Shown piece by piece: positions 8,451 through 47,020 of a stretch of DNA of 64,000 nucleotides. Numbering within the stretch: position 1 is the first letter of the stretch; each line of letters begins with the position of its first letter. The stretch is from Microbotryum violaceum (Eukaryota): the NCBI GenBank assembly GCA_001244265.2, contig CDLV01000004.1, forward strand, positions 3,658,001-3,722,000, given 5' to 3'. Position numbers and translations under genes: made by a program. The notes beneath the pieces were generated by a model that saw nothing but the letters and a program-made list of their open reading frames with translations, had not been told where the DNA came from and did no database searches.

Positions 8451-9500
8451 CTAGGTTCGGCGGCGCTCCGCGCGCCACCTCACGCCGTAACCTTTGATCC
8501 GCTGCAATGTGATGTGCTTTGCTGCAACAGTTTGGCTACTGTTGTAACGGAAACCTGGTGGTTCAAGTCGAGAGAGGACCGCGCGCGACAATCAAATGTA
8601 CACAGTTTTCATTTCATCATTGGACTACTTTTTCGTTCTCCGGGAGCCCGATGATGGGCTCAGACCGTCGTCGAGACCCGTGTCGAGTGCGTAGACCTTT
8701 TCACGGGTGTCGCACGCTTGACTTGCGAGCTGCCAATCGAACCGAGCCGTACATATTGGAATATCCTTTCGACCAGCTGGAAACATCGACGGGGCTGCAT
8801 CAGCGCCTCTCGTTTCATCACTGGGAGCCCCCTGATGGGCTAAGACCGTCGTCGAGACCCGCGTCGAGTGTGGAGCAACGCCATCCCGGTGATGTTGAGA
8901 CTCTGAAGATACTCGATCGAGAACAGTGTGATTCGTCTTCGTTTTCGACCGAATCTGCGCTATAGAACGTTTGAGCGTCACCCGGCAGCAAGTCGAGCAC
9001 CACGTCGTTGATGTGATCCACCTGCAAATTTTTGGGCGTCAGTTGTGCTCGCTCTCGGAAGTATTCGACTTTTTCGCCTATCGATATATTGTCCAGTTCG
9101 AGCGCGGGGACGGGATAGACGTGTCTGATCAACCTCGACATCTTCGACGACTCTACGTGCAATGTTCCGAGACATCGACGGTGCTGCATCGGTGCCTTGT
9201 CCCAGAGCTCGGCAAGCTGTCCTTGTTTCGGAACCTTGCACGTAAAGTCGTCGAAGATGATGATCGGGACCTTGAACCGTGAATGCGCCGTTCTGCCTTT
9301 TGGCAGTAGCAGCGCAACAATACTCGATGATGCAACGGCAAGAGCGTATGTTCCCTCTGACCGAATCCGAGCAAGGACCGTTTCTTCCAAGCACGATTTT
9401 CCTGTCCCTCCCGGAGCATCAACGAAATCGACGATCGCACTTGGCTCAGCGAAGTGCGGACCCATCCCGCCACACTCAGCCGAGTCGCACTTATGCAGGT
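8451..9500 (-). mobile_element. Deleted Helitron (PIF1 helicase fragments and 3' terminus)
   Basis: ORF 8818..9465 has [29 protein letters not shown] and WDKAPMQH. The 3' hairpin and CTAG lie at 8451-8480, and the 3' region resembles 45990-46087. The right boundary is approximate. Confidence 0.85.
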
Positions 9501-25675: not shown

Positions 25676-28600
25676 ATGTCATCTGTAAACTTTCACGTAC
25701 AGAAGACTCTCCACTACGAATCTTCATGGAGAGGACAGGGGCAGCCGAGACGTCGCCAATGTGAGCGAGGTCAGCGCGCCGTCCGCGAGGCTGAGAAGGA
25801 CCCCGAAAGCCCAGCCGGAGGCGCATTTTTTTTTGACATTTTGAGGACCCAAAATCCTGGAAATCGTCGAGGCGCATTGCAAAAAATCGACATTTTGGGA
25901 CGAAACACACGTTTCGCCCCCGAGGCGCATGTCCAGATTTTGACATTTTCCCGTGAGTCGGCCCAATTTTGGCCTACCCTGAGCAACCTTCGGCATGACT
26001 TTGGGCCCGTTCGCCTTCGTTTCGAGACGCGTTTAGCGATGCTCGCGCCTGAACAAGTCACTTAGTACTAGCCATCTTCGGTAATCACTTGAGTTAAGTG
26101 GCTGTGAGGGATTAGGCCGATTCGATATTGAAGGGGCGCAGGTTCCGTTCCGCTTCACTTCGGTCCGAGATTGGAGCATAGCACGACAACATCATCCCAT
26201 GCAGGCCTGCTATTTGAACGATGCCTTCGATTGATTATCGCCGCTCACCAACATGAACATGACGATCGCCGAGCTCCTCGCCTTCGATGTCGCTCCCGCC
26301 GACGCGTCTCTTCACATCGAATTGTCCAAAGACGAGCACACCCAGTACTCGACCTTATCATCTACTCGATGCTGTTGAGAAGGCAAACAGCTTCTCACGA
26401 TCAATCGTGCGTCTACCAAGCTCAACTATCGAAATTTTGGTCTAAGCTCACGCGTGTTCGGTTCTACACAGCCCACAAACTTGAAACTTCCGCCTCAAGT
26501 TGTCGATGCTCGCGATACCAATTTCTCGCTGGACTGGCCAACCTGAATGCCCATCAAGCTGCTCATAAGTGTAGCCACCTCAAGCTGTTCTACCCAAGGG
26601 AGGCCGATGGAATCGAGCGACCCAACTCGCGGAGAGGCAGGCGTAGGGGGGGTTAGCAATACAGAGGAAGGACGCAGTGCAGCACATTCATGCGTCTTGA
26701 AAGGGTTGGTACAGTCCATGGGACCATCTCGCTGCGAAGACATGGCGGGCACGACAACGAGCTTTCACTGGACTAGAGGTGACCAAATGGACCGAGCGCT
26801 CACAACACACGAGGATCCAGAAGAATGTCTATACTGAGGATGGCCGCATTCAAGTGAGTTGTCGCTGAATCTAGGAGCGAAGGCAACTGGATCTAATGTT
26901 TGGAGAAACAAGCAGACGGAGCACTAGCACAACGCTATCCTCATTTTGGATCGCTTGACGGCGGAGCTGTAACCACTACCACAACATCGGAGATCGGATC
27001 TCTGGTCTGCTTTGGCCTCAAGCGTGGCATGCATTCAATCAGCTGCGATCAAACTGCCTATGGAGAAGAAGTGCCGTTCATTGGAATTGGTACGATGCCT
27101 TGAATGGCAGTTGAGCTGTGAAGTTCTCGTTTGACACAAGTCTTGTGTCCTACAGTGCAATATATCTACAGCAAAGTGACAACAAACCACTGCAACCAAG
27201 ACACGCTCGCCTCGTTGGTTTTACTCTCAAATGTCGTCGTACAGGAGCTTCGCCTCATCAAGAAAACATGCTATTCCACACACCTCATTGATGGCACTAT
27301 GCCGTTCCGCATGATTGATGGTCGATAGGTCATCGAGTCATTAGGCCCGTCAACGACTACATATCGTTCAACCACGGACCTTACCTCATGTTGCCCGGAC
27401 GAGCGCCTAATCAGCACGAGCGCACATGCCGAGCAAAGGTTTGCCGCCTTCGGAGCGTGCCCGGCCTGCGAGATGCCGCCGGCAGAACCTCTACAAGCCG
27501 CACAAATGCCACCGCGGAAACAAGGATCTCAACTTCAGCAAAAAGGAAGTCTGACAACGAAGCAGCGAGCCAGCCAGCAAAGCAAGGAAGGCTTGTTTGA
27601 AGCCTACACCAGCCGAAGCGACGCGCGCCGCGAGCCACTTTCGATAGGCCGCCGCGCGCCCGCAAACGCCCGGAACGCGTTTTCGAGGACTTTTGAGCGA
27701 TTTTTGGAGCAGGTAGAACACATTTTGATAATATTTCCGAGGCGCATGCGAAATTTTGACATTTTGGGGCCAAAATAGGGTAAAAAACTTTGACAAAAAA
27801 GCCAAAAAAGGGCGTTTTTCCGCATGCGCCTCTGGCTGGGCTTTCGGGGGTCCTGGCTGAGAGGGCCGCCAACGAGGCTGCTTTGCGCTGTGTGCAAAGG
27901 GGGAGGAAATCATCAGCCCAGACCTCGCGCATGAGGACAGTACAAACTTGAATGTATGGATGCCCGCCGCGTTCGCGCTCCTCCGCCCAACCCTACTTCC
28001 GCTCTAACCACACAGACGCCGCCGCCAACAACCGCTGCATCTGCCGACATGTCATCTGCTAACTTTCATGTGCCGTTTCCTCAACAACAACCTTCACGTA
28101 GAGCACAGGGGCAGCAAAGACGTCGGCAATGTGAGCGAGCTGAGCGCGCCGCCCGCGAGGCTGCAGGCGCCCCTCCGCACAACCCGACTCCCGCTTTAAT
28201 CGCACAGACGCCGCCACCAATCGATCAACGCAACGTCGCGCAAAATGGATCGTCGAGTCGATCTGCACAGGCAGCCGGCACTCCCAATGTCGCCCGGCAA
28301 ATGCGACGGGCCCGCAGTCCTTCACCTCCTGGCTTGAGATTCGTTCGTCCACGCTTTGAAGCAATTCCAGACCTCTCTCGCGTCGCCGGTTCGAGTACAG
28401 ACGCGACTGCGACTTCAACCACTACTGTCGTCGAACAATGATCCGCGGCGCAGCGTCAACGACGCCAATACGAAAGAGGGCGATCGAGCCAGTCCGTCCC
28501 AACTGCGCTGCTGCCGTTGCTGGAAGGACCTTTTCCCCGGCACGACCTTGGATCAATGACGTTGCAGTGTCCGATCTGTTCGGCTCTACACTGGGAGTTC

Positions 28601-31600
28601 GAAAAATCACCAACCCGAGGCGGCGCCACACCGTTCAAACTCTGTTGCGCGGACTGCAAAGTTCGATTGCCCGGGATCGAAAAACCCCCGCCCGAGCTGC
28701 TCGAGCTCCTGACTGGCGATGGCCCAGGTTTGTACACGTCGATTCGTTCAACTTGCTAGAATGAGTACAGCGGACTAACGGCCTCGCTGACTATCCGTGA
28801 AACAGTTGAGAAGATCTTTCGGGACCGCATTCTTGCATTCAACGAAAGCTTTGCTATGGCATCATTCGGCACGAGCAAAGGTCATGGCATCATCAACGGC
28901 GCCGGACCGCCATCTTTCTACCTGAGCGGAACGGTTTTTCACCGTTTCGGCACGCTGGCACCGGGCCCAGCAGACGACCCCGTCTTTGCCCAGATTCTCT
29001 TCCTGGCTCCGACTGAACACATCGAAGCCCGACGAAGATTCAACGGACCGCCTGAAGAGGTTTGACGTCTGGACTCGGCGTATCAGCAGATCGTTCCTGT
29101 ACTCGGCGTATCAGCAGATCGTTCCTGTACTCGACGGCATGTTGCAAGTCCACAACAGACGCGTCAAACTGTTCCTAACGGCAAAAGAATTCATGAACAG
29201 TGAAACATCTCACATGTACAAGCTCCGCTTACTTGCACCGCGCAATCGAGACCCGAGAACGTACAACTTGCCGACGCAAGAGGAGGCGGTCGTCATACTA
29301 CCCGGAGACGACACCGAGTACCGATCTTCAAGAAGAGAGATCGTCGTGCGGTTATGTCACCCGCCAAACAATGACAGCCGCGGAATTCAGCTCATTCACG
29401 ATGGTCACCCTGCACTCATGGCACTGACATACCCGCTATTGTTACCGTATGGCAAAGACTGGTACCATGACAGAATCCCCCTCAGCCAAAACGCTATCGC
29501 AACAGAGGCAGCTCGGCGCGTGCGAGACGAAAACGGTGTATTGCAGCGCACAACAGATGACGCCAATGCCAACCCGCAAACCGGAACGGCCGGATCCAAA
29601 TGTGTGACACAGAGCCAATTCAATGTGTATTACTTCCATATTTGTCCTCACAATATCAGTTACCCAATGCTGTTCCTAGGAGGGCGGTTGTTCCAGAAAT
29701 TTGTTGCGGACACCTGGGCAATGACTGAACAAGAACGGCTATATTGGATGAGAGCGAATCAGAAGAAGCTCAGAGCCGAAGAGTATTCGCCCTTCAAGCA
29801 AGCCTGGCTGAAGGACTCGATCCCGCGCAGATCGGCAAAAGAGTCATTCTACTGTCCTCACACACCGGATCGCCACGCCAAATGGTCCAACTTTACCAAG
29901 ATGCTATGGCCATTGTTCGTGTTTTTGGTGCTCCGGACATATTCATCACAATGACATGCAACCCTGCCTGGTCGGAAATCGTCAACGCTTTGCTTCCTGG
30001 CCAAACCGCATCCGACCGTCCCGACATAGTAGCACGGGTCTTTCACGGTAAATTGAAAGCTCTTCTGGCGGATGTATTAGGTGTTGGTCGTGCGCCGGGA
30101 GTCCTTGGAAAGGTATGTCATTGACGCGGTGAATCCTTAAAACATAAATTGAATAAAATGCTCATGAGTCTCAATCTTTGCACAGGTCATTGCATATGTC
30201 TATGTTGTCAAATTTCAAAAGCGCGGGCTGCCTCACGCCCACATCCTTTTGATCATGGACCCAGAAGACAAACCAAAAACAAACGACGACTACGACAAGA
30301 TAGTCACCGCAGAAATACCGGACCGTAACAAATTTCCCGCATTGTTTGAGACCATCACAAACACCATGCTACACCGGCGATGTGATCGTCCCGGCAAGCA
30401 TACCTGCCACGACGACCATGGAAAATGTACCAAACGGTTTCCCAAACGACTCCAACCGCGGACGACCAGCGAAGACGGCGGCTATCCACACTACCGGTGT
30501 CGCGGCATACAACAATATGTCAAATTTGCGGGCACAGCGCAAAAAGAAGTTTATACGGATGCAAATGTTGTTCCAACAAATCCGTTCCTTGCGTCCAAGT
30601 ACAACTGTCATGTCAACGTGGAAATCGCAAGCGGCATTGCTGCAATCAAGTACCTGTACAAGTACGTTTACAAGGGCCACGACCGTACTTCATTCACGAT
30701 CGACGATCCCAAAGCTCAAGACAAAATCAACAACTTCCTTGACGCTCGATATGTTTGTGCCCCCGAAGCCATTCACCGGCTATTTCGATTCGGTATGCAT
30801 GATCGAGATCCCGCAGTGGCCAGGCTTGCGCTGCACCTCCCGAATGAGCAACAAGTTCGGTTCAACCCAGATCACGGAGCACCGGATTTATCAGCGCCAC
30901 CGGAAACGACGTTAACCGCCTTCATCAAATTGTGCGCCAAGACGCCGCCCGATCACAACGCACGAAATCTGCTTTACGTCGACGTGCCAACCCGTTTCAC
31001 ATGGACCAACGAAGATTGTACTTGGGTTCCACGAAAAGTTGACAACCGGACAATCGGAAGAATTTACTTTTGTGGTCCTGAAGGCGGAGAGCGATACTAC
31101 TTGCGGCTACTCCTTCTCAAGGTGCCTTCTCCGACATCGTTTGCGGATCTGAAGACTTTCAATGGTGTTGAGTTTCGAACATTCCGGGAAGCCTGTGTCG
31201 AACGGGGGCTCCTACACAACGACGCTGAAGCCGACAGATGTCTGACTGAGGCAGCGGTCTTCCGTACGGACCACGAGCAGCGACACCTGTTTGCCATGCT
31301 GTTAATGGCTGATGATGGAGTCACAAACGCGGCGCAGTTATGGACAAGGCACTATGACAACCTCACCCAAGACGTCGAATACCAGCTACGAAACCAAAGA
31401 CGGCAGCCGATCATCACACCCGAGCATGTAGCCAGCTGGGGGCTGCTACAGCTCAGCAATATTCTGCAACGACTCGACTCCTCATTGTCAGACCACGGCC
31501 TGCCGCTGCCAACGATTCAGTTCGATGACGAAGCTTCAACAAAACGTCTCATCATGGAGGAATCAGCCACAGCAGCAGAACTTCACAAATTGGAGGGTAT

Positions 31601-32052
31601 CTGGAGGAACAACTTCGAGTCATGCAACGCCGAACAATGCGTTGTTGTTGAGACAGTTCTTGACTCGATTCTGAACAGCCGCGGAAAAGTCTTTTTCATT
31701 GATGCTCCAGGAGGGACAGGCAAAACGTCCTTGGAGAAAACGATCCTTGCTCGGATTCGCTCAGAGGGAAAATACGCTCTTGCCGTTGCATCATCGGGTA
31801 TTGCTGCACTGCTACTGCCAAAAGGCAGAACGGCACATTCACGGTTCAAGATCCCGATCAACATCTTCGACGAATCTACGTGCAATATTCCAAAACAAGG
31901 ACAGCTTGCCGAGCTTTTTCGGATGTGCGACTTGATCGTCTGGGACGAGGCACCGATGCAGCATGTCGATGTTTCCAGCCGGTGGACAGGATGTTGCAAC
32001 ATGTGCGATCGTCAACGGCTCGGTTTGGTGGACTGACCGTTGTGTTGGCAGG
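25676..32052 (+). pseudogene. Helitron Rep/PIF1 helicase, broken and truncated after DEAPMQH
   Basis: CPICSALHW..CCADCKV zinc finger, PDIFITMTCNPAW, KFQKRGLPHAHIL (HUH), KYLYKYVYKG, APGGTGKT and WDEAPMQH. A 28-bp tandem duplication lies at 29073-29128. Confidence 0.92.
25797..27854. mobile_element. Non-autonomous TIR DNA transposon with 8-bp TSD
   Basis: ~30-bp TIR AGGACCCC(C)GAAAGCCCAGCCRGAGGCGCAT. Perfect GGCTGAGA duplication at 25789-25796 and 27855-27862. Subterminal GAGGCGCAT..GACATTTT repeats. Confidence 0.9.
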
Positions 32053-32226
32053 TGCGTGCCAATGTTTCAGCAGCAAAGCGCAGGGCAGCATGACTAACTG
32101 ACCCGTAGGACTGTCCCATCACAGGGGATCCGCGGCTTGACTTCGTACGGTGCAGAATCCGGGTCATGGGAACACTAGATGCGAGTCTTCACTGTCATTG
32201 CTACAGATGGACAACAGCAAGAATAC

Positions 32227-32505
<279 letters not shown>

Positions 32506-33311: not shown

Positions 33312-35788
33312 GGGCCCGTACCCATGTCGGGGGGTGGGGGGGAAAAGGAAAAGAAAAAAAAGGGAAAAAAAGAGGGGAAAAAAAGAGGGGGGGAGGAAAA
33401 AAAAAAAAAAAAAAAAAAGGGAGAGGGAAAGAAAAAAAGGAAAAGGGGAAAGGAGAAGAGGGAGGGGAGGTGAAACAGGAGGAAGAGAGGAAGTGGTACG
33501 GAACAAGTCATTTTGAATATACATCATATTACAGGTATTATGAAGCATCAAAGTTGTGACATTTCTTTTGATGCCGAGCTCGGCCATTCATCTCAGCCCT
33601 TGTCAGTCCTCTACAGAACCTTCGTGATTGTGGGTCGTTCGGATCCATCTCGTCTGTCAGCCCGAAAGGCTTTCCGCAGTCCAAGCACGCCCCTTCACAC
33701 CCAGTCACCGATCCGTCATCTCTTAGTTTTGACCCCTTGAGTTGACAAGTAGTTTGACCACAGAATCGACAGTGCCTTGCCCCTTTTGTGGTACCCGCGC
33801 GCGTCAAAGCCCTGCTCGTGCCCAAGTCCGCGCTCGAACCAGCGTCGCTCGAGGCAGTTGCAACAACGGGGCGGATGGATGACGTTGGCGGATCTGAGGC
33901 ATCGACTTCTATCTCTGTAAGCCTCCCCAAGACTGGCGGTTTGTGACCAAGTAATGGCTTAGCCGCTAGCATGCTAACATCACGACCGCGGGAGGGGTCG
34001 GTAAGTAAAGCTTGAATCACTCTGACGTCGTTCCCACCCATGTTCATTGTGGCTTGAGCATTTGCCAGCGACGACCATCTCGATGCCCATGTTTTAATGT
34101 GCTCTGGCATCTGTGTGAGAATTGCGCTTCAGCTCAACATCACCATACAGTGTGACACAGACGCGACATACTTTGTAAAAGATGTCTACTCCGTTGGCAT
34201 ACTTGTTCCAAAGCTCGGTAATCTCCAAAATCCGAAGATTTTGAGGAGCTCCCAGTCGTATCTTGCTTGAGAGATATCTGTATAGCGCTCGTTCGCTGGG
34301 TGTATGGACATGTAATACAGCGAATCGAGTACCCTGACGTTCCGCTAGCCAGTCGTGGCGAAGCTTGCGATCGGTTAGCAGCCGGCTTTGCATATGCTGT
34401 ATCGCCGACGTATTGTTTTGCAGCAAGTTCCGTGGCGACCACTTGACGGGCTCCAAACGCAGAGTCCCGCGCTCGATGTGATAGGGCTCGATCAGAAAGC
34501 GCATTTGCGCTGTTGGCGACTGAACAGGTACGATGCCGAATGTTTCGGTGGATGGGGTGTAGAGCAGCGGGTTGACTATATCTGACACAGTGGCTGAGTG
34601 CCGTGGGAAAAATGCCGAGGCCTTGCGCCTTAGACGATGTAATCCCACAGTGAGCCAGAGGTCGTAGTGCCCCACGAATGGTTTTCCGGTACGATTGAAC
34701 GTCCCAACCTGCGAATACAAGGGATAGTGGGTGAGAAAGGTTGCCGCTTCTTCGAATCGCGATGGTGAAGTTGGACTGACCGTGAGATTGTGCACTAGCA
34801 CGTAGTCAGCCAAGCACGCATTGGCATGGCACGGAGAAACACCCGAATTCGGAAACCGTTGGCGAAGGTTCCGGTGGATGCCTCCTTCGAGACTGTTGGT
34901 GCCGCGCTGGCAGGAATATAAACGGACACCGTCATCCGCCTTTCCATCTGGCCCTCCGCAAGGCCCAAGGTCGGTGTACAGCTCGATGCCAACTGGATCC
35001 GAGACTTGGCCTTTCCGAATCGCCTCAAGACATCTCTTCGCTGCATCGTGCGCCGCTTTGTTGAAAAGTGGTTGCTTCGACTTCGCATCGATCAATGGTC
35101 CGAACTTCTCAAAGACCTCCCGGACCAAAGGCTCGAGAATGCTTGGCGGAGGGATCCATCGACGAACGCGTCTCCAAAGTTTCTTATTCCATACCGGCGA
35201 ACGGACGGCTTCTTCCCACGTCATTCCGAGTTTTGCTAGGCGAGCCTCCATCAGGAGTCGATCATCCGCATTCGGGATGAAAACCGCATCGGAGCACGCG
35301 CGAGCAAAGGCTTTGGCAGCGCCATGTTTTTTTGGACACATAGATCCGGTCAAAGAAATGCCAGAGATCGATTAGAATCCGCACAGCGGTCTCGTCTGAG
35401 GAAGGGACTAGTGAAAGGGGATGGTTCGATATAGGTACATCAGCTCCAGCCCCGGCGCCAGGACTGGCGCAAGTCCGTAGTAACTCACCTTTGCTTGTTG
35501 CAGCCTTGCCCCAGACAGCTTTGCCAGCTGCTTCGTTTTGGCATCCGTGTTATCGGCGCTTCGTTTCCGAAAGAAGCGTGACAGCAGTTGCATCGTAGGA
35601 TATGGCACGTTGCAGCATGAAGACAAGGGGATGGCCGCGTGCGGCGCGCCTGATTGCGCCAACTCAACTCAAGTGCGCTAACTCACGTGCGCCAACTCGG
35701 GCGCCCGACTGCGCCAACTCAATTGCGCCAACTCAATTTGGCGCGCGCGAGTTAGCGCAAGCGCACCCCCCAGCACCGGTACCGCCCC
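33312..35788 (-). mobile_element. Zisupton/KDZ-like DNA transposon, internally deleted, inserted in the Helitron 2 5' region
   Basis: GAATGT is duplicated at both flanks and the Helitron sequence rejoins across the insert. Short imperfect TIR (GGGCCCGTACC / GGGGCGGTACC), GCGCCAACTC subterminal repeats and a transposase fragment. Confidence 0.72.
33538..35353 (-). pseudogene. Zisupton-like transposase, C-terminal part, spliced
   Basis: RRVRRWIPPP, PLFN..A, GQVSDP.GIELY, LYSCQRGTNSLEGGIH (cf. Zisupton YRCARGS.SLE..H), HN..GTFNRTG..GHYD.W, and C-terminal RHCRFCGQTTC. Confidence 0.72.
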
Positions 35789-36193
35789 GAATGTTTGGCC
35801 AGCTACAGGTCGTTTCGTCTACGTTCGACGAGGTTCCATTTTCCATCAAAGCAGCCTGGCACGTGACCCTCCGCTTCCCAGAGCAGACTGAGATGACCTG
35901 TTGTGCGTGTCTACTACATCGTAGCGTAGTTCCTTCAATCATCCAGTTCCTGTCACTGCCGAAATCTATGCCAGACCTCGGGAAGTGTCGGCCAGTGCGC
36001 CAATTTCGCCGTTAGGGGCCCGCCAGCGTGTCACGGGGCTTCACTCCATCAAAGGCCTTCCACGACATTCTATGAGTCCGGTTTAGACCGGTTCTCGGCG
36101 CTCGCGATGGCTAGGAGCTAGAGGTGGTTTCGCCAACGTTCGCTGACGTTCGCCGGCGTTCCATAATCGGCGAAGTTACGTCAACGTTATCAA

Positions 36194-39100
36194 ATGAATC
36201 CACCGCCTCGGAGATCTGAAGCCCAGCAACGACGTCGTCAACGGGAAAGGCTCGAGCGAGAGCGTTCCGGTCCGGTCCCATCGACAAATCAGACCACTTC
36301 TATAAGATCTAGCGCACAACGATTGTGGCGACTCGGGGAAAGGCAGCAAAATGATTCTGTCGATGTATCACCTCCACCCCAGCCAACGCCCGACGTCCAT
36401 TCTGTCCCGCAGCGACGACCTCACAGTCCTGAACCTCCGGGAGCGCGTTCGGTTCGCGCACGGCAGCATCCATTCGCCACACAGTCACCCATGGCACTGC
36501 GTCCCCTGCCGGAGGATCAACTGCATCCAATGGATCCACCGCCTATGAACGCTGCGATCTCTCGGAGGTCTCAAGGTCAGCAAAGACGTCGTCAGCGGGA
36601 AAGGCTCGAGCGAGAGCGTTCCGTTCCGGTCCCGCACAGTTTTCCGCCCGACCCTGCCTTTGCCGAATCAGCATTGACGAATCAGTCCACCTCCAGGAGA
36701 TCTGGGCAATATGATTGCGTTGAACAATCACCTCCACCCGAGCCAACGCCCGACGTTCATTCTGACCCGCAGCGACGACCTCGCAGTCCTGAACCTCCAG
36801 GAGCGCGTTCGGTTCGCGCACGGCAACATCCACCCGCCACACAATCACCGATGGCACTGCGTCCACTGCCGGAAGGAGCCTACTCTCGACACGACTTAGG
36901 TCCAATGGATCTTCTGTGTCCGAAGTGTAGCGCCTTCCATTGGGACTTCGAACGCTTGGGAGGACGGCAAAATTCAGAATTCAGGTCATGTTGCGACGAC
37001 GGCAAGGTGGAGCTACCGAAGATCAGAAAACCTCCCAACACTTTGCTTGAACTTCTCACTGGCGATGGGCAAGGTATGTTAGACATCATTCCCTTATTTG
37101 TTGGTGCAGTACATCTGACGAAAACGCCTTGCACCGTGTGTACAGTGGAGAAGCTATTCCGTGAGCGAATCCTGGCCTTTAACGAGAACCTTGCAATGGC
37201 GTCATTTGGAACAAGCCAAGATTACGGAATGATCGGCGCTGGTGGACCGCCTTCTTTCTATCTCAGCGGGAATGTCTATCATAGAATGGGTACGCTAGCT
37301 CCAGCACAGGGTAGCAACCCTGTATTCGCGCAAATTCTCTTCGTGGCTCCTTCCGAACGGATCGACGCTCGAATTAGGTTCAACGGACCCTCATCGGACG
37401 ACGAACAGCAATTGGTCACCGCATACCGCCAGATTCTTCCCCGGTTGGACGAGATGATGCTACAGGAAAACAGGAGAGCGCAGCAGTTCCTCACGGCGCG
37501 AGAGTTCATCAATCATGAGGATGCACACGCATATCAGTTACGTCTTCTTGCACCACGAAATCGAGACCCCAGGAGGTACAATTTGACAACGCAAGACGAA
37601 GTCACCGTAATCCTACCGGGTGACGAGACGGAGCATCGTTCGTCTTATCGGGAAATCGTGGTGCGATTACGTTCGCCACCAGATGGGGACACGACCCATG
37701 GGCTTCAAATCCTTCCAGACAAACATCCAGCGGTAATGTCGCTGACATATCCGCTACTATTGCCGTTCGGAGAAGACTGGTATCAGGACAACATTTCTTT
37801 CAGTCAAAATGCAAGCACATCCTCGGCTGATCGGAGAACTCGGGACGCGGATGGCGTCTTGCAGCGTACGCATGGGTCTGGCTCGACGACCGCCGATAAT
37901 CCGCAGACCGGGAGAGGTGGATCGAAACACGTCACACCGCTTCAATTCAACGCCTATTACTTCCACATTCGGCCCGAAACCATGTCCTTCACTACACTAT
38001 TCCTTGGTGGTCGACTTTTCCAAAAGTTCGTCGCCGATGCGTGGGCTCTGACAGAGCAGGAACGGCTGCGATGGATCACGACGAACCAGAAAACCTTAAG
38101 AGCCGAGGAATATTCGTCCCTTCAAGCCAGCCTTGCGGAGGGCATCGATCCGTCGGAAATTGGGAAAAGAGTCATTTTACCGTCTTCGTACCCCAGCTTA
38201 CCTCGGAACATGGTGCAGCTATACCAAGACGCCATGGCGATCGTCCGTGCTTTCGGCGCACCGGATCTGTTTATCACGATGACCTGCAATCCCGCCTGGC
38301 CAATGATCATAAACGCGTTGTTGCCAGGCCAAACCGCTTCAAATCGTCCCGACATTGTCGCACGAGTTTTCCAAGGCAAGCTCACAGCTTGCCTTCATGA
38401 CATCTATGAAGACCATGGCAGACCCGGCGTCTTTGGCAGGGTGAGTTTTATCACAATGGTTTCAGGGTATTCTGTGTGCTAATGTGCAGCCCAAACATTG
38501 TCGATCATTCAGGTCGTTGTCCACGTCCACGTAATCGAGTTTCAGAAGAGGGCCTCCCACACGCCCACATCCTTTTGATCTTACATCCGGATGACAAATC
38601 GAAGACGAACGAAGACTTTGACCGAATTGTCACAGCGGAGATTCCGGATCGAGAAAAGTTTCCGACATTGTTTGAGACGATCACCAATTCCATGCTCCAT
38701 CGTCGATGCGACCTCCCCGGACAACACACCTGTCACGACAAGAATGGAAAATGGTCGAAGGGATTCCCGAAGCAATTTCAGGATCGCACTACCAGTGAAG
38801 ACGGGGGCTATCCGCATTACCGTCACCGCAATCTTCACCAGTTCATCAAGTTTCCGGGAACTGGACGGGAGGAGATCTATACCGATGCAAACGTTGTACC
38901 GACTAATCCGTGGCTGGCTTCGAAATACAATTGCCATATCAATGTGGAAATTGCGAACGGGGTTGCGGCGGTCAAGTATCTTTACAAATACGTTTACAAG
39001 GGTCATGACCGGACTTTATTTACCGTGGAAGCAGGCGCGCCGCGTAACGAAGTGAAAGACTTCCTCGATGCGCGATATGTCTGTGCTCCAGAAGCAATGC

Positions 39101-41547
39101 ACCGACTGTTTCAATACCAAATGCACGGTCACAAACCAGCTGTCACACGTCTCGCACTGCACCTGCCTAACGAGCAACAAGTCCGATTTGATCCTGAAGA
39201 CGGACCGCCAACTACGGCAGCTCCACCAGAGACGACTCTTACGGCATTCGTGAAGCTTTGCGCCACAGTTCCACCGGTACCCGAGGCACAAAACTTACTT
39301 TGTCTCGACGTGCCCAGGTCTTTTTGTTGGGATTTGAACAACCGAGCTTGGCAAGAACGGAAAAGAAACACACCCGCCATTGGCCGTATGTACTTCTGCG
39401 GTCCGGAAGCCGGTGAACGATATTACTTGCGGTTGCTTCTACTCAACGTCCCGTCGCCGACAACCTTCGCTCAATTGAGAACTTTCAACGGCACGGAATT
39501 TAAGACTTTCCGGGAAGCATGTGTCGAACGAGGATTACTGCGAGACAACACCGAGGCAAACCGTTGCCTCACGGAAGCGGCCGTCTTTCATTCCGGTCAC
39601 CAGCTTCGCCATCTATTTGCGATGTTGTTGACCGCTGATGGCGGTGTCTCGAATGCAGCGGAGTTATGGGAGACACCACAACAGTCTGTCGGACGATGCC
39701 GAGTACCATCTGCGGATGCGACGTGGACAGTCTTTCATCACTCCAGAACACATTTCTAGCTGGGCACTACTCCAACTGGACCAGATCCTCCAACGCTTAG
39801 GGACCAGTCTCTGTGATCACGGACTGCCTTTGCCGACAGCGACGTTCGAAAACGAGCTCGAGCTATCGCGACTAATGATGGAAGAGCGGTCAACACCGGA
39901 AGAAATTGAGCGAATGAACCGGGAGTGGATGAAAAATCTGGAGGCGTTCACGGTTGAGCAAAGGCACGCATTCGACACAATTTGCGATTCAGTATTCAAT
40001 GTCCGAGGCAAGACGTTCATCATCAACGCACCAGGTGGAACTGGCAAAACGTTCCTGGAGACTACAATTCTTTCACGGATTCGTTCCGAGAACAAATACG
40101 TTTTGGCTGTTGCTTCATCCGGCATTGCTGCGCTATTACTTCCGAAAGGCAGAACGGCACATTCGTGCTTCAAGATTCCGGTCGACATATTCGATGACTC
40201 GACCTGCAACGTTCACAAACAAGGACAGCTGGCGGAACTTTTTCGAGCGTGCGAGCTCATTGTATGGGATGGAGCGCCGATGCAGCACCGTCGTCACTTT
40301 GAGCTGGTGAACAAGATGCTGCAAGACGTCCGTACGTCTTCGGCAAGATTTGGTGGAATTACAGTTCTCCCGGCAGGTACATATCAATGACTACCATGGC
40401 ATATTAGACTTGGCTAATGAACTTGCGTATTTCAACTGCCTGCAGGTGACCCCAGACAATGCCTCGCTGTTGTACCCAAGGCTTCACCTACTCAGATCTT
40501 GGATGCCTGCATCATGAATGCGGATTTCTGGGGAGAAGTTCAAATACTCCATCTGTCAGTAAGTCCATTCATTCGATTCATTTGTGAAAAGTTTGACAAT
40601 GCGAGACTGAATTGCGACCTAGGGGCCTTTCTACTCAGACGAACATGCGTCTTCTCGCTGCTGTACACCGCATGACAGAAACGGAACTGGCCAAGTCACA
40701 GGAGTTTGCAGAATGGCTTCTGAAAGTTGGTGATGGCTCCGCCAACATTGATGGTGGAGATACCATCACTCTTCCTGACCACCTGTGCCTCCCAGTCGAC
40801 TCGAGACACAAGACCGGCTTGATCAACCACATATATCCTCTCTCTGCGGATGATCTCACCCTGATGTCAACCGAAAACAAAGCTGCTTATTTCCGGGATC
40901 GCGCAATTTTGGCCCCAAAGAATGCGGATGTCGATGAACTCAACAACATGATCATCGAACGTCTTCCCGGCGACGCTCAGACATTTTACAGCGCTGACTC
41001 CGTAGACAAGGAGGCCGGATCACTGTATCCGACGGAGTATCTCAACACTCTTAACATTCCCGGGATGCCACTCCATGCAGTTCGATTGAAGGTCGGCTGC
41101 ACGGCCATGCTGCTGCGCAATATGGACCCTGGCGCGGGGCTGTGTAATGGCACCCGGCTGTTGTTGACACGGTTGCAGTCCCGTGTACTGGAAACAATCA
41201 TCTTGACTGGCGATCATGCCGGACAAACCATTCTGCTGCCGCGGATCACGCTCAAGAATGCATCTTCAGCAGATCTTCCGCTCACCCTCTACCGAACACA
41301 GTTCCCCATCCGGCTGGCCATGGCGATGACAATCAACAAATCACAAGGACAGTCTTTGGGTCACGTTGGGGTGTGTCTGGAAAACCCTGTCTTCTCACAT
41401 GGACAGTTATACGTTGCACTGTCCCGAGCATCAAGCGTACATGGTGTTAAGGTTCTTCTGCCAACTACTACTGGCACTCAACAGCATGCTTCCCACAACG
41501 TCACTGACAACATTGTGTTCACAAGGATATTTGACTCGATGGCCTGA
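36194..41547 (+). pseudogene. Helitron Rep/PIF1 helicase, nearly intact (4 introns, ~2 frameshifts)
   Basis: N-terminal QQRRRQRERLERERS repeats, zinc finger, HUH (GLPHAHIL), Y2 (KYLYKYVYKG), GGTGKT, LCNGTRL, TINKSQGQS and [12 protein letters not shown]. Frameshifts near 38550 and 39670. Confidence 0.95.
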
Positions 41548-42008
41548 AATATCGAAGCTACGTCTAAGTATTTGTGTACCCCAAGCAAAAACTAAACAAA
41601 CCTTGACAACCTCTGTACGAGTCTTGGGAATTGAGCACGCCGAGCACAACAACCGGACCCGTAGCTGGCAGAGCCGGCAGAGGCTTCGACGAGGCTCGCC
41701 GATGCAGTGGCCCTTGGTGCCGCGCTTTGCACTTTCAACAGGCTTGATGTGCCACACGGTTAGAAAATTGGGTTGCCTAACAAATGATTTTTCGCAAACA
41801 CGGTAACATCATAAATCAACAGCACTTCATACGAGATATTCGCCGAGGTTACATGTTCTCCAGTCGACTTGTGCTTCTCACGCCGATATTCTTCTACGAT
41901 ATTCCATGCCTGCATAGGCGGTTCAAAAGGCGGTTTCTCTTCTCCTCGCGCTTTTGTCTTCCTACCATCACGTCGCCTCGAACCTTCACAGACCACCGTG
42001 CTTAGTCG

Positions 42009-43347
42009 ATGGCTACCCTCACAGCTTCCTCCGTGTACCAAAGCACGGAGGCACCACGTACAAACCTTGATCAAGGTCACATCGAAGAACTCCAATGAAG
42101 ATATCAAAACCAGCGCGTGACGCTGGCATCAATCGGTCCCAATACTACTGCCATCATCAAACTGCCAGCAGGCCACTTCGGCCAAACAGTAATGACTGAA
42201 AACGGAACGCACCCTTTGGTCGTGACGTTCTTCGGAAAAGTTGCAACGTTGGACCCCTCTTCAGGAAAGCCACCAGTTTAGTGAGTCGTCACAAGACAGG
42301 CCGTTCTTTCTTCTCAAATTTCTTCGATCAGGATCATAGATCACATCCATGTCTGAACTAATTGTACAGCATAACCAATGTAGACGATTTGAAAGGACCC
42401 CATGAGCTTGGCCGCCAGATAGGGCTGGAGCTTTTCGAATCTGAAGCCATCGTTGCAAACGGCCTCCACGTCTTATGCTCCAAGTTTAGCGACGGTATAA
42501 GCTCTGTTTGTAATGTTGCAGCTGAATCCGGTAAACCTACTCGAGCTACTGACCGAGAGTACGGCAGCCGCTGACACAATCACATATGTCATCTCTTTGT
42601 TCCACAGCCATCCCATTTACCGCCTCATCCTCGAAGTCAAATCTCCGGATAGTCTTTCTGCACCACAATTTGGTCACCCCGGAACAGTAAGTACTGGCTG
42701 CGCGATATCGAAAAGACAGGAGAATCTGGAAGATGTGTACTGACATCAACACGATAGGTATTGGGATAATGTGACAGGAGGAGAACAGAAGCCGGGAGAA
42801 CAGGAATATCCGCCGATGCCAATGTGGGGGGCAGGGCTCGACGCCCAAGCGTACCGTGCATTGTACGCGGACGGAAGCGCGCGATGGGTTGTACCGAGGC
42901 AAGAAATGCCTCAAGGCATACCCAACTCCACTTCCGGTTGTAATCGATGGTCATGAAGGACGGACTTTTAGCCACACCATCCTCAAAAAGGGTGACTGTT
43001 GTGGGGTCATGTGCATGATAGTAGGGCGGACGTGGAAAAGCAAGAAAACTGGAAGCATGGTGGGGAAGGTGGACTTCGTACCGTTGAAAATACGTGTTAC
43101 GGGAGCTTCAATGTAAGTACGTCTGAAAGTCTCGAACCCCGTAACCAACAATTGACCGGTTCCCAACTTGTGGCAGCAGTCGTTTACGACAGGGTCGTTC
43201 GCATCAACGTCAACCGAGGCACCGGAAACCAAGCTCGCGATGCCAATCAAGCGTTCCGCTTTGAATGTCGAACTTGATGTCGGTGACACCGACTCAGAAG
43301 ACTCGGAACTTCTGTCCAGTCCTCCAACGAAACACCAGAAGACATAG
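42009..43347 (+). pseudogene. Helitron-borne spliced accessory gene, putative OB-fold ssDNA-binding protein
   Basis: ATG at 42009 and GT-AG introns with CTAA/CTGAC branch sites (42281-42369, ~42531-42608, ~42687-42757, ~43113-43176). LKKGDCCGVMCMIVGRTWKSKKTG..KVDFVPLKIRV and an acidic tail DVGDTDSEDSE..PPTKHQKT*. One in-frame TGA near 42096. Confidence 0.6.
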
Positions 43348-43535
43348 ACGAAAGCAGCGTAGAACCATAGGCATCTGCAATAATGTAACAGAAGTGCTGA
43401 TTTTCAATGTGAGGTGGCGCGCAGAGCGCGCCGCCGAACCTAGTATATCCTCAAAACTTATCTATCCTTAAAACTATCTTCTATCTTCTATACTACTAAA
43501 TCCTACTATCCTACTTCCTACTATACTCTGCTTCT

Positions 43536-43643: not shown

Positions 43644-45137
43644 CCGACTGTTGTCTAGACAAAGAACGTCAAAGAACAAAAGACAAACCACGTGGCGTGA
43701 CGTCATCGGCAGCTCTCGGTCTGGCGCGTCCCCGGAACTAGCTAGCGCTGATTCAGCATGGGGCCAGTGACAGACCGTTTCGCCTACCTTCGCCAAGGTT
43801 CCATTTCCCAACAAAGCAGTCTGGCACATTACCCTCTGCTTCCCAGACGAACGGTTTTGCGTGCCTGCCACATCGTAGCGTAGACCCTTCAACCATCCAG
43901 TTGCTGCCACTTCCGAAGAGTCATCTGCAAGCTTTCACGTCCCGTCTCCTGTACAACGATCTTCACGGAGAGCAGCGGGGCAGCAGAGACGTCGGCAGCT
44001 GCTCGCGTTCCTCCTCCGCACAAACGTCGCGCAAACTGGTTCGTCAATTCAACCTGCACCGGCAGCAGGCAGCCTCAAATGTCGCACGGCAAGTGCAACG
44101 GGCCCGCAGTTCTTCACCTCCAAGCTTGAGATTCGTTCCTCCACGCTTTGAAGCAGTTCCAGACCTCGGGTAGCGTCGGCCAGTGCGCCAATGCCGCTGT
44201 TAGGGGCCCCGCCAGCGTGTCACGGGCCTTCACTCCACGACGTTCCGCGGCCTTCTGCGACATTCTATGAGCCCGGTTTAAACTGAGGCGCAGGCTTCCC
44301 CATCTTTCTCCCTCCTGCTCTTCACCCCTGACCCATCGCACCTCATCCCAACCCCACCTCGAGCTCGCGACATCTGAAGCGGTCGTCGTGGAAGCTCTGC
44401 AACGAATACGGGATCAAGAAACGGCTGCCGCAAGTAACTTCATGAACTGTGCCCTTGGTGTGGGATTGTTCAGAAGCTGATGGAAAACTACCAAGCAGCA
44501 ATTCCCTTCAACACGTCTTCTTTGAATGTCACCCTCGAGTCGTTTCTTCACTGTCAGCTGGTGACACTGCATGCGTGCGTTATCCCTTAACTGAGAATCC
44601 GGGTTATCGGCACACCAAATGTGAGTCTTCACTGCCATTGCCACAGATGGACAACAGCAAGAGTACTGATAGTTGTAACGAATCACGGAAGAAAACAGGC
44701 TCTGGTCGCGTGAATTGCGGCTCACCATCCCGTGGCAGATCCTCAACGGCTCGGTTCGGTGGGGTGACCATCGCGTTGGCAGGTGTGTGCCAATCTTTCA
44801 GAAGCAAAACGCAGGGCAGCATGACTAACTGTCCGGTTGACTGTAACATCACAGGAAATCCGAAGCAATGCCTTCCCGTTATTTCACGGCGCGGTTCGGT
44901 GGAGTGACCGTCGTGTTGGCAGTTATGTGCCAATCTTTCAAAAGCAAGGCGCAGGGCAGCATGACTGACTGGCCGGTTGGACTGTAACATCACAGGGGAT
45001 CCGAAGCAATGCCTTCCCGTTATTCCCAAGTCAACGCCTACACAAATCGTCGATGCTCGCATCATGAATGCTGACTTCTGCGGGGATCTCTCTGTAAGTA
45101 GTAGTCCTCGCCTGACCTTTAGACCGTATACTAACGA

Positions 45138-45289
45138 CATCAGCAACTTTGCCACTCGCGCTTTAGTGCAATTTAGTGACTTTTAGCGCATTTTAGTGCC
45201 AAAAGCGCACTTTTAGTGACATTTAGCTCGTTTTCTATAATCTCCGGTGCGCCAAATTGCACCAAGCGCGAGTGGCAAAGTTGCTGATG
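45138..45289. mobile_element. 152-bp MITE with 26-bp perfect TIR
   Basis: CATCAGCAACTTTGCCACTCGCGCTT ... AAGCGCGAGTGGCAAAGTTGCTGATG, with internal TTTAGTG repeats. It sits in a Helitron intron. Flanks are ACGA/ACGG. Confidence 0.9.
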
Positions 45290-47020
45290 ACGGCACGGTG
45301 CGAGCACAGACCAACAATGCCTCTTCTGGCCGCTGCAGACCGCGTGACCGAAACGGCACGGGCAAAGGCACAGGACTTTGCAAATTGGCTCTTGGGAGTT
45401 GGAGACGGCTCGGCAAACAAACAGAAGACTCTATCGCGCTCCCACGTCAGCTTTTCTTGCCGGCGACCACGAGGAACAGATCCGGCCCGGGGTTGATCAG
45501 ACACGTTTATCCCGTCTCCGCGCTCGAACTGGACAATATGTCAACAGGCGAAAAAGTCGAATACTTCTGAGAAGGTGGGTCAGAACGGCAGAAGACTGTT
45601 GTGAACCCGGTTACACACCCGCGTGCTCGAAGCCATCATTCTCACACGAGATCGTGCTGGACAGCCCGTTTTGTTGCCACGGATCACGCTGAAGACAGGG
45701 TCATCAGCTGAGCTTCCGTTCACTGCGTCGGAGTCTCCGATTCGGCTGGCAATGGCTATGACGTTCAACAAGTTGCAGGGGCAGTCGTCACGCGCGCAGG
45801 TAAGAGTGTGTCTGGTGACGTCCGTCTTTTCTCACGGCCAGTTGTATGTCGCGTTGTCCCAGCAACTTATGTGGACGGTGTCAGAGTTCTGCTTCATCAG
45901 ACTGAGAACAGAGAAGCGGATAATGTTGAAATGAAGGCTGTGTACATTTGATCGTCGTCACGCGCTTCTCTCCCGACTTCAACCACTACGCTTCCGTTAC
46001 TCAACAGTACCGCAGCTGTTGTATCACATTGCAGCGGGTCAACTCTTACGGTGAGAGGTGGCGCGCTCCGCGCGCCACCGCACCTAGTATATTGAAGAAT
46101 GAGCTACATTCCTCGTTCGCCGAAAAAAGCGAGCCGTGATGCTATCGTAATCGACAGTCTCGGACACTGTGCCACTCCGTCCCAGTACTATCCTAGTCAG
46201 TCCCAGCCTTCTTAGTATTCCTTAGTCTTTTCTAGTCCAGAGACGTTCGCCAGAGGCGGGAAACGGCCAGCTCGCACCTTTACGACTCCCCCTCTACCGC
46301 CGCGCCTTCTCAGCCGTTCCTCCACTTACTCGCCATTGGCGACGAGCTTGGGATCACTCGTTGCTGTACTATGAACACTCGGCGTTCTCTGTCGGCGTCT
46401 CTCCACCCCGCTCAACCCCAGGGATAAACCCGAGTCAGCCACGGCATCATCATGCCGGACGAGCGCGCCAGCTCCAGACCGAATGCGACCACAGAGCAGG
46501 TCGAGCGGGTCGCTACTACTCCTGCTGATGAAGAGGCATATCTGTGTCACGACTCGTTCGCTCGTTCGCTCCTCCCGTTGATGCAACTGCGAGGGGCGCC
46601 CGCCGACAGTGCTAGCGCCACTGATGGACAAAGGCCCCCTACGAGTCGTGTCCGACCGCTGCAATGTAGGGTGCACTTGGCTACTAGATCCTCCCTCGAA
46701 ACATGTCGACTGAAACCGCAGTGCTTGCGACCATCGTATCCATCGCTCGATAGCTCTACAGGCTCTACGCGCACCCGTGGTCGAGACGGCTTCTCCGCTA
46801 GCGTCGCCGACTCATGTCGTACTCCCTCTCTATACCAGCCGTAGCGGAGCACTAGGATCCACCAAACCTGCACGATCCATCTGGCGCGAATCAGATCGCT
46901 CAGAAGGTTAGATCATGTTGTCTCAGTCATCGCCTCCAGTGCCTGTCATTCTAACCGGCCGATTGTCTCATTCCAGACGGTGTCGCCGTCGCAGCAGGGG
47001 CTCGATCGGTGCCGCAGTCC

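Follow-up and report, generated by a model that had tools for sequence, protein, structure and literature searches.

A second, spliced gene lies 3' of the RepHel gene of a Helitron in Microbotryum violaceum, and its position, splicing and constraint make it very probably a dedicated, ancient accessory gene of Microbotryum Helitron-like elements. Its 344-aa product is a putative non-RPA, OB-fold single-stranded DNA (ssDNA)-binding helper acting in trans, a function to which we give an even chance. The gene was recognised in a 64,000-nucleotide stretch of contig CDLV01000004.1 (the window; positions 3,658,001 to 3,722,000, with coordinates below counted from its first nucleotide). The initial annotation had placed it within a Helitron, and this part of the annotation holds, the gene being stable, spliced and constrained in several Helitron-like families. 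The features of the element are as follows:

35789..43443, + strand: canonical Helitron (HLE1), family A, the left limit being where homology to the other copies starts; 92-96% identical to its copies by blastn
36167..41547, + strand: RepHel gene (Helitron_like_N + PIF1; Pfam PF14214, PF05970, PF21530), broken in the window copy; the start is approximate, being that of the first open frame
37074-37145, 38441-38512, 40377-40445 and 40559-40622, + strand: the four RepHel introns of the splice model
41548..42008, + strand: spacer (~460 bp) between RepHel and the second gene, taken as promoter and 5' UTR; conserved in L002, L003 and L007 of family A
42009..42280, + strand: second gene, exon 1, containing PLVVTFFGKV; an in-frame stop in the window copy only
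42370..42530, + strand: exon 2, with a conserved R[QE]IxLEL and then a probable long helix, the latter from a low-confidence model only
42608..42686, + strand: exon 3, with a conserved [FY][LI]HH
42758..43112, + strand: exon 4, with the core PTPLPV...HTIL..GD.C..(M/V)C...W...G...P.RxHG; contains both frameshifts of the window copy
43177..43347, + strand: exon 5, a low-complexity tail in which P[IV]KRS is conserved, with a short stretch of acidic residues and a basic end; in run X11 the acceptor is at 43180
43413..43443, + strand: 3' terminus, a 10-bp GC-rich hairpin plus CTAG (DNA fold, -13.3 kcal/mol)

The window element is an HLE1 Helitron by its Rep and PIF1 domains (PF14214, E 5e-43; PF05970, E 2.5e-47) and by its 3' end, where the hairpin at 43413-43435 is followed by CTAG at 43440-43443 and then by a T, in keeping with the CTRR + T pattern. 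Both the RepHel stop at 41547 and the hairpin-CTAG end at 43443 had been placed correctly from the letters alone. The identical 3' end recurs in many genomic copies, and homology to other family-A copies begins at 35789; a 5' TC end following an A was not located. The RepHel gene of the window copy has its first stop at codon 509 of the splice model and carries two 2-bp deletions relative to L322 and L324, two family-A copies that lack the second gene. An intact RepHel in a gene-less family-A copy was ruled out, as none of the four family-A RepHel models reads through. A 425-aa open frame at 34094-35371 (- strand) is unrelated to the Helitron and presumably resembles a DNA-transposon protein.

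The second gene runs from an ATG at 42009 to a TAG at 43347 on the same strand as RepHel, in five exons separated by exactly four GT-AG introns (42281-42369, 42531-42607, 42687-42757 and 43113-43176), which agrees well with the "about four" introns first proposed. Junctions in RNA had been suggested as a check, and GT..AG joints for all four introns do occur in public contigs. Four runs (X1, X2, X3 and X11) out of 13 listed were compared with the gene; no run is on record as RNA, and RNA origin was inferred from the joints themselves. X2 shows the joints of introns 1 and 2, and X11 shows those of all four, the acceptor of intron 4 lying 3 nt downstream; in the DNA-like run X1 the introns are covered and no joint is seen. 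Run X3 has an alternative intron-1 acceptor 14 nt downstream (42281-42383) that would shift the frame. The spliced-type contigs of X2 and X11 start at 41971-41985, positions which, being contig ends, cannot show the true start; the 3' end of the helicase had no cover in X2, X3 or X11, and such contigs cannot rank genes.

The fragmentation of the gene into short open frames, ascribed initially to its introns, has a further source in the window copy, which also carries three lesions: a stop codon in frame at 42096-42098 and two frameshifts, one from a duplication of 4 bp near 42868-42875 and one from the loss of 1 bp near 43099. All three are absent from every other copy covering those sites, and joining the exons of undamaged copies gives an uninterrupted 344-aa frame. 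Across both frameshifts the window matches a spliced X11 contig letter for letter, and the window copy therefore appears to be a pseudogene that is still transcribed and spliced; X2 contains a spliced relative without the 4-bp duplication.

In the 33-Mb genome searched (20 contigs), exon 4 has 55 matches, and the 30 examined as loci all fall in three repeats, families A (4 loci), B (14) and C (12), with membership set at 80% nucleotide identity or more and four loci serving as their own references. Family B, also a canonical Helitron, has a helicase end ~74% identical to the one in family A. Family C is an HLE2 (Helentron-type) element: it carries DUF6570 (PF20209, E 6e-12), RepHel remains in L074, short inverted repeats and a 3' stem-loop, and DUF6570 with short terminal inverted repeats and a 3' stem-loop is the HLE2 anatomy outlined in PMC11417382. 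Both halves of the terminal repeat are present in five of the 11 distinct family-C loci scanned (L074, L083, L084, L085 and L087). Most family-C copies examined are deletion derivatives fusing DUF6570 to exon 2, and such fusions (L077, L079, L083-L086) have spread while evolving neutrally. A ~550-bp inversion splits the family-C copies into two groups, and many copies have a retrotransposon-like insert in their 3' part. Family B is also represented in the window, by rearranged pieces just 3' of the element (44024-46021, + strand), including an exon 2-3 remnant near 44340-44590; by a RepHel at 27963-32228 (+ strand) that is 91% identical to L073, truncated within its helicase, with 95 bp of the second gene left behind it; and by a short deletion derivative with helicase pieces and a 3' end (8502-9427, - strand).

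A fourth family, D (P0014, P0025 and P0026; 359-377 aa), is 24% identical to family A over 325 columns. It is multi-copy in M. saponariae, at 88-100% identity and on different chromosomes, and has no close match in the genome of the window. A gene model of M. saponariae fuses a Pif1 helicase to a family-B C-terminus, which extends the adjacency of the two genes to a second species. Throughout the loci examined the gene lies 3' of RepHel or of RepHel remains, both in HLE1 families A and B and in the DUF6570 element with HLE2 termini, a position that the initial annotation had proposed to check. That annotation had also named simple capture of an ordinary host gene as a possible undoing of its proposal. 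Host RPA70 and mitochondrial SSB are separate single loci, of which the second gene is no copy, and every examined locus is a repeat.

Family B has introns at the same four positions as family A, and family C shares the three introns that its copies still cover. Compared over 239 codons, the A and B proteins are 48% identical, with pN 0.36 and a saturated pS of 0.815; codon positions 1, 2 and 3 are 61, 70 and 29% identical, and the similarity of the four introns does not exceed that of shuffled sequences (13-191 of 200 shuffles did at least as well). The intron positions shared across families and the saturated synonymous sites between A and B argue that the gene is not a recent host capture. 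The dN/dS comparison advocated in the initial annotation gave a divided answer, with purifying selection within family B (0.22-0.58 in 10 of 10 pairs) and present-day neutrality within family C (~1), the latter as expected for dead derivatives. The helicase end evolves more slowly than the second gene (dN 0.16 vs 0.49).

The presence of the gene behind the helicase was followed from 63 helicase-end matches, 30 of which were examined as loci. Among seven complete helicase ends of family A, the gene follows in four (displaced by an 11-kb insertion in one), and in the other three the helicase end passes directly into the 3' terminus, with a short overlap of AATA at the joint. Two of these three belong to one 99%-identical duplication, leaving two independent sites. 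The gene-less family-A copies all lie less than 50 kb from a contig end (L322 and L324 on C5, at 0.4 kb and 47 kb; L323 on C4, at 35 kb). L322 and L324 constitute the duplication, which is 9 kb long, has many small indels in L324 and is possibly an assembly artefact. Nine family-B-like ends comprise five with the gene, three with remnants and one with nothing. Another abundant HLE1 family was followed at 12 loci, and the gene is absent from 11 of them; at the twelfth, a gene fragment lies ~0.9 kb further on, which is probably a separate insertion. Copies of this HLE1-like family (L307-L316, L318 and L319) end within ~250 bp of the helicase stop, and the scanned hairpin-CTAG pattern was not found in them. 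Whole-locus scans of three gene-less elements found no second-gene match inside the elements.

As families B, C and D have the gene, the simpler reading is that gene-less family-A copies would have arisen by loss. The second gene is dispensable in cis, since two family-A insertion sites and one whole further Helitron family are without it, and these same elements speak against an obligatory Rep-helicase-SSB module. Absence from other copies, or neutral evolution, had been named in advance as counting against that proposal; absence is seen at three family-A ends, at one family-B-like end and in nearly all loci of the further family, and neutral evolution in family C.

Relatives with a name were confined to Microbotryum. 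A profile search of 1.84 billion representatives returned 21 matches; of the 10 that were identified, eight are from Microbotryum and two are chance matches, and all named relatives come from Microbotryum silenes-dioicae and M. saponariae. ESM features tie P0014 of family D to 30 unnamed, Pfam-less clusters at scores of at least 0.9, and the three clusters listed are mostly of Basidiomycota. These look-alike clusters may offer a lead to a wider family; the sequence searches named no relative beyond Microbotryum. Longer proteins containing exon 4 were not found by a word-index search, an Atlas search with exon 4 alone gave no usable match, and a phage collection searched with a family-B protein gave nine records at E 4, a chance level. 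A pattern scan of viral contigs gave no match, and one of metagenome contigs gave three, all chance (phage or bacterial antisense frames). The literature searched holds no description of the gene family, most subscription papers, Repbase and the supplements of PMC11417382 and PMC4289320 lying outside its scope.

The assignment to the SSBs began with a sequence pattern in exon 4 that resembles the OB folds of bacterial, phage and mitochondrial proteins. The pattern is real as a gapless register, in which the 40-column core falls best on beta3-beta4-L45 of E. coli SSB; for this window, chosen after looking, an equally good fit came from 1 of 1000 column-shuffled and 8 of 1000 block-shuffled controls. 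The best registers of the core on T7 and Enc34 SSB land on the presumed equivalent segment and are not significant. In an unbiased window scan, however, chance registers are as strong as the pattern, those at non-equivalent positions attaining z 4-5 and so equalling the E. coli register. In the gapless comparison itself, E. coli SSB was outscored by a non-equivalent window of Enc34 and by 1 window among 7615 from the background. The profile comparison proposed with the pattern did not favour it: hhalign, with shallow profiles, gave at most 3.6% probability against T7 gp2.5, Enc34 ORF6, E. coli-type SSB and host RPA70, so that three SSB families and RPA70 all stayed below 4%, with T7 against Enc34 reaching 29% as the control.

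Among 22 family members, Pfam detected no SSB or RPA family at E<=1 and no enzyme family. PHROGs gave unnamed families only (E>=0.038), and sequence searches of the PDB with two profiles gave one chance match (E 0.3) and then none. PF00436 matches only the host mitochondrial SSB locus in the genome, and the second gene fails that HMM; PF21265 and PF10991 gave neither an HMM match nor a significant profile-profile match to it. The RPA OB-domain HMMs likewise gave no match, and PF16900 matches only the host gene in the genome. The early proposal that this Helitron may encode its own non-RPA ssDNA-binding protein is partly supported, the gene being a constrained part of the element and its product matching none of the SSB family HMMs (PF00436, PF21265, PF10991) or RPA HMMs. 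AlphaFold models had pLDDT 46.6 (exon 4) and 30.9 (family D), both unusable. A search of BFVD with these models gave no match at E<=0.001, which at pLDDT 31-47 is uninformative, and other fold searches with them gave none at Z>=2 and none at Z>=5. Rows named as SSB (11 of the top 50, vs 1 of 50 in a parallel search) were discounted as one beta-hairpin in the pLDDT-31 model. In that family-D model a helix (126-148) follows the R[QE]IxLEL motif.

The peptides quoted in the initial annotation are present in the sequence. The two described as beta-strand-like are ~167 residues apart in the 344-aa protein rather than adjacent as in bacterial SSB, and a plain bacterial SSB is therefore excluded. The motifs HH, HT.L, D.C...C and R.HG are invariant or near-invariant across the four families. 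The tail had been called acidic and NLS-like. It is locally acidic in families A and D and has a basic end, but it is basic in family B and its acidity is not conserved: D+E vs K+R counts are 8 vs 7 in family A, 3 vs 8 in family B and 12 vs 7 in family D, and the last 30 residues of T7 gp2.5 and Enc34 have 15 vs 3 and 16 vs 3. In families A and B the tail finishes with basic residues, has a net charge near zero or positive, and does not show the strongly acidic C-terminal tail or tip of bacterial and mitochondrial SSBs. Because P[IV]KRS and the basic residues are kept and acidic residues occur only in A and D, the tail seems to read more like a nuclear import signal than like an SSB acidic tail; we take the basic end of exon 5 to be NLS-like.

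Within the SSBs, the virus-type (T7 gp2.5-like) proteins match the layout of the protein better than the bacterial and mitochondrial type does. That layout is read as an early strand, then a second strand with a long helix behind it, a PV-x-x-D segment late in the chain, and at the end a long beta-hairpin and the disordered tail. T7 gp2.5 (PF21265) and Enc34 ORF6 (PF10991) show, by eye, a similar order of elements, with a strand plus long helix, V-x-x-D before the terminal beta-hairpin and a disordered tail (PMC5686142, PMC4889955), the long helix of the T7 type coming immediately after strand beta2 (PMC5686142). The second gene differs from these in its longer protein (~345-377 aa), its not consistently acidic tail and its introns. 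Its likeness to the bacterial and mitochondrial SSBs (PF00436) is the gapless placement of exon 4 described above, and it differs from them in lacking the acidic C-terminal tip and in being three times the length of the OB core.

As an ssDNA-binding helper, the second gene would be transcribed from its own promoter in the 460-bp spacer behind RepHel, and its product would enter the nucleus via the basic tail. There it may coat the strand displaced by the Pif1-like helicase in rolling-circle transposition, preventing re-annealing and degradation of that strand. It would act in trans and improve rather than enable transposition, so that copies could lose the gene. RPA is itself patchily distributed among Helitrons (PMC11417382; PMC4683698; PMC6431247) and absent from the Fusarium Helitrons described in PMC5148889, which accords with a helper role rather than an essential one.

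Helitrons elsewhere are accompanied by comparable genes, of the RPA or Ssb-like_OB kind, and in HLE1 the RPA genes show enrichment downstream of RepHel (PMC11417382). The RPA70-like genes of plant Helitrons (PHRPA) are likewise separate genes beside RepHel, enriched downstream in HLE1 (PMC4683698, PMC11417382), and they too are non-essential and lost in derivatives, with binding of the displaced single strand as their proposed job (PMC4683698). The second gene differs from PHRPA in having no detectable RPA homology and a fungal host, and from RPA genes more broadly in forming one gene family common to HLE1 and HLE2 and downstream in both, whereas RPA lies upstream in HLE2 (PMC11417382). The Ssb-like_OB domain of HLE2 is a non-RPA-annotated ssDNA-binding OB domain already known in Helitron-like elements; that domain is Pfam-detectable and almost exclusive to HLE2, whereas the second gene matches no such Pfam model and occurs also in HLE1 (PMC11417382). 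Among basidiomycete Helitrons, capA and capB of HELPO1 in Pleurotus ostreatus are similar in being expressed, function-unassigned genes downstream of RepHel, and capB relatives in other mushrooms also lie beside RepHel (PMC4289320). Compared by description only, the second gene adds to these a demonstrated constraint, intron conservation and presence in HLE2. A wider extension, which we offer as speculative and rather improbable, is that HLE1 and HLE2 elements of basidiomycetes share an ancient, intron-bearing SSB of the T7 gp2.5 type; with the HUH Rep and Pif1 it would form a virus-like replication module that passes from one transposon group to another and serves gene-less derivatives in trans, and the "captured genes" of mushrooms would belong to the same superfamily.

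Other functions were weighed against ssDNA binding. It is conceivable, if doubtful, that the gene is a dedicated Helitron accessory of another kind, e.g. for anti-silencing or for protection from RIP-like mutation, or a His/Cys metal-binding nucleic-acid enzyme or regulator. The conserved His and Cys motifs of the four families could be a metal site, neither fold models nor profiles gave evidence for an OB fold, and a gene dispensable in cis is compatible with such a role; fungal Helitrons carry TET/JBP dioxygenase genes (PMC12730594), and Microbotryum Helitrons are less affected by RIP than other repeats (PMC10502011). On the other side stand the lack of a Pfam enzyme family among the 22 members, the lack of an HxD motif conserved across families (by eye), and the fact that the only recurring resemblances, weak as they are, are to OB strands. 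A TET/JBP identity for the second gene itself was considered and rejected, with no Pfam match and no conserved HxD.

An unlikely origin is a highly diverged RPA70, with two OB folds (exons 1-2 and exon 4), as the fungal counterpart of the RPA of plant Helitrons. The best local hhalign alignment to host RPA70 sets the strand in exon 1 against beta3 of an RPA OB domain (probability 0.19%), and a beta3-like segment occurs in both exon 1 and exon 4; the position downstream of RepHel is that of RPA in HLE1 (PMC11417382), and plant Helitron RPAs average only 21% mutual identity (PMC4683698). Yet none of the 22 members was matched by an RPA family, PF16900 recognises only the host gene, a four-cysteine zinc motif is not conserved (by eye), and reports of RPA in plant Helitrons are limited to monocots and dicots (PMC4683698). 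Less likely still, and quite improbable, is a captured host gene or passenger without a role in transposition. Gene-less elements exist and have spread; moreover, the loci examined are 30 of the 55 genomic matches, and the context of family D lies outside these data. Against a passenger, however, all 30 of those loci are repeats of families A, B or C, constraint persisted inside the elements while synonymous sites saturated, and family D is dispersed in copies of 88-100% identity over different M. saponariae chromosomes with no close match in the genome of the window.

Second genes of fungal Helitrons are usually filed as captured cargo of unassigned function. The gene described here is old, spliced, under purifying selection and common to HLE1 and HLE2, which makes it part of the transposon's own biology. 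Should the product turn out not to be an SSB, its family is one not described before, marked by conserved His/Cys motifs. If it proves to be a non-RPA SSB, the recruitment of ssDNA-binding helpers by Helitrons has happened more than once, with viruses as a possible source, and a T7-type fold, if confirmed, would be notable given that T7-like SSBs are described as virus-specific (PMC4889955). Such a protein would also allow the contribution of ssDNA-binding helpers to rolling-circle transposition to be tested directly, and it may be relevant to the expansion of Helitrons in the mating-type chromosomes of Microbotryum (PMC10502011).
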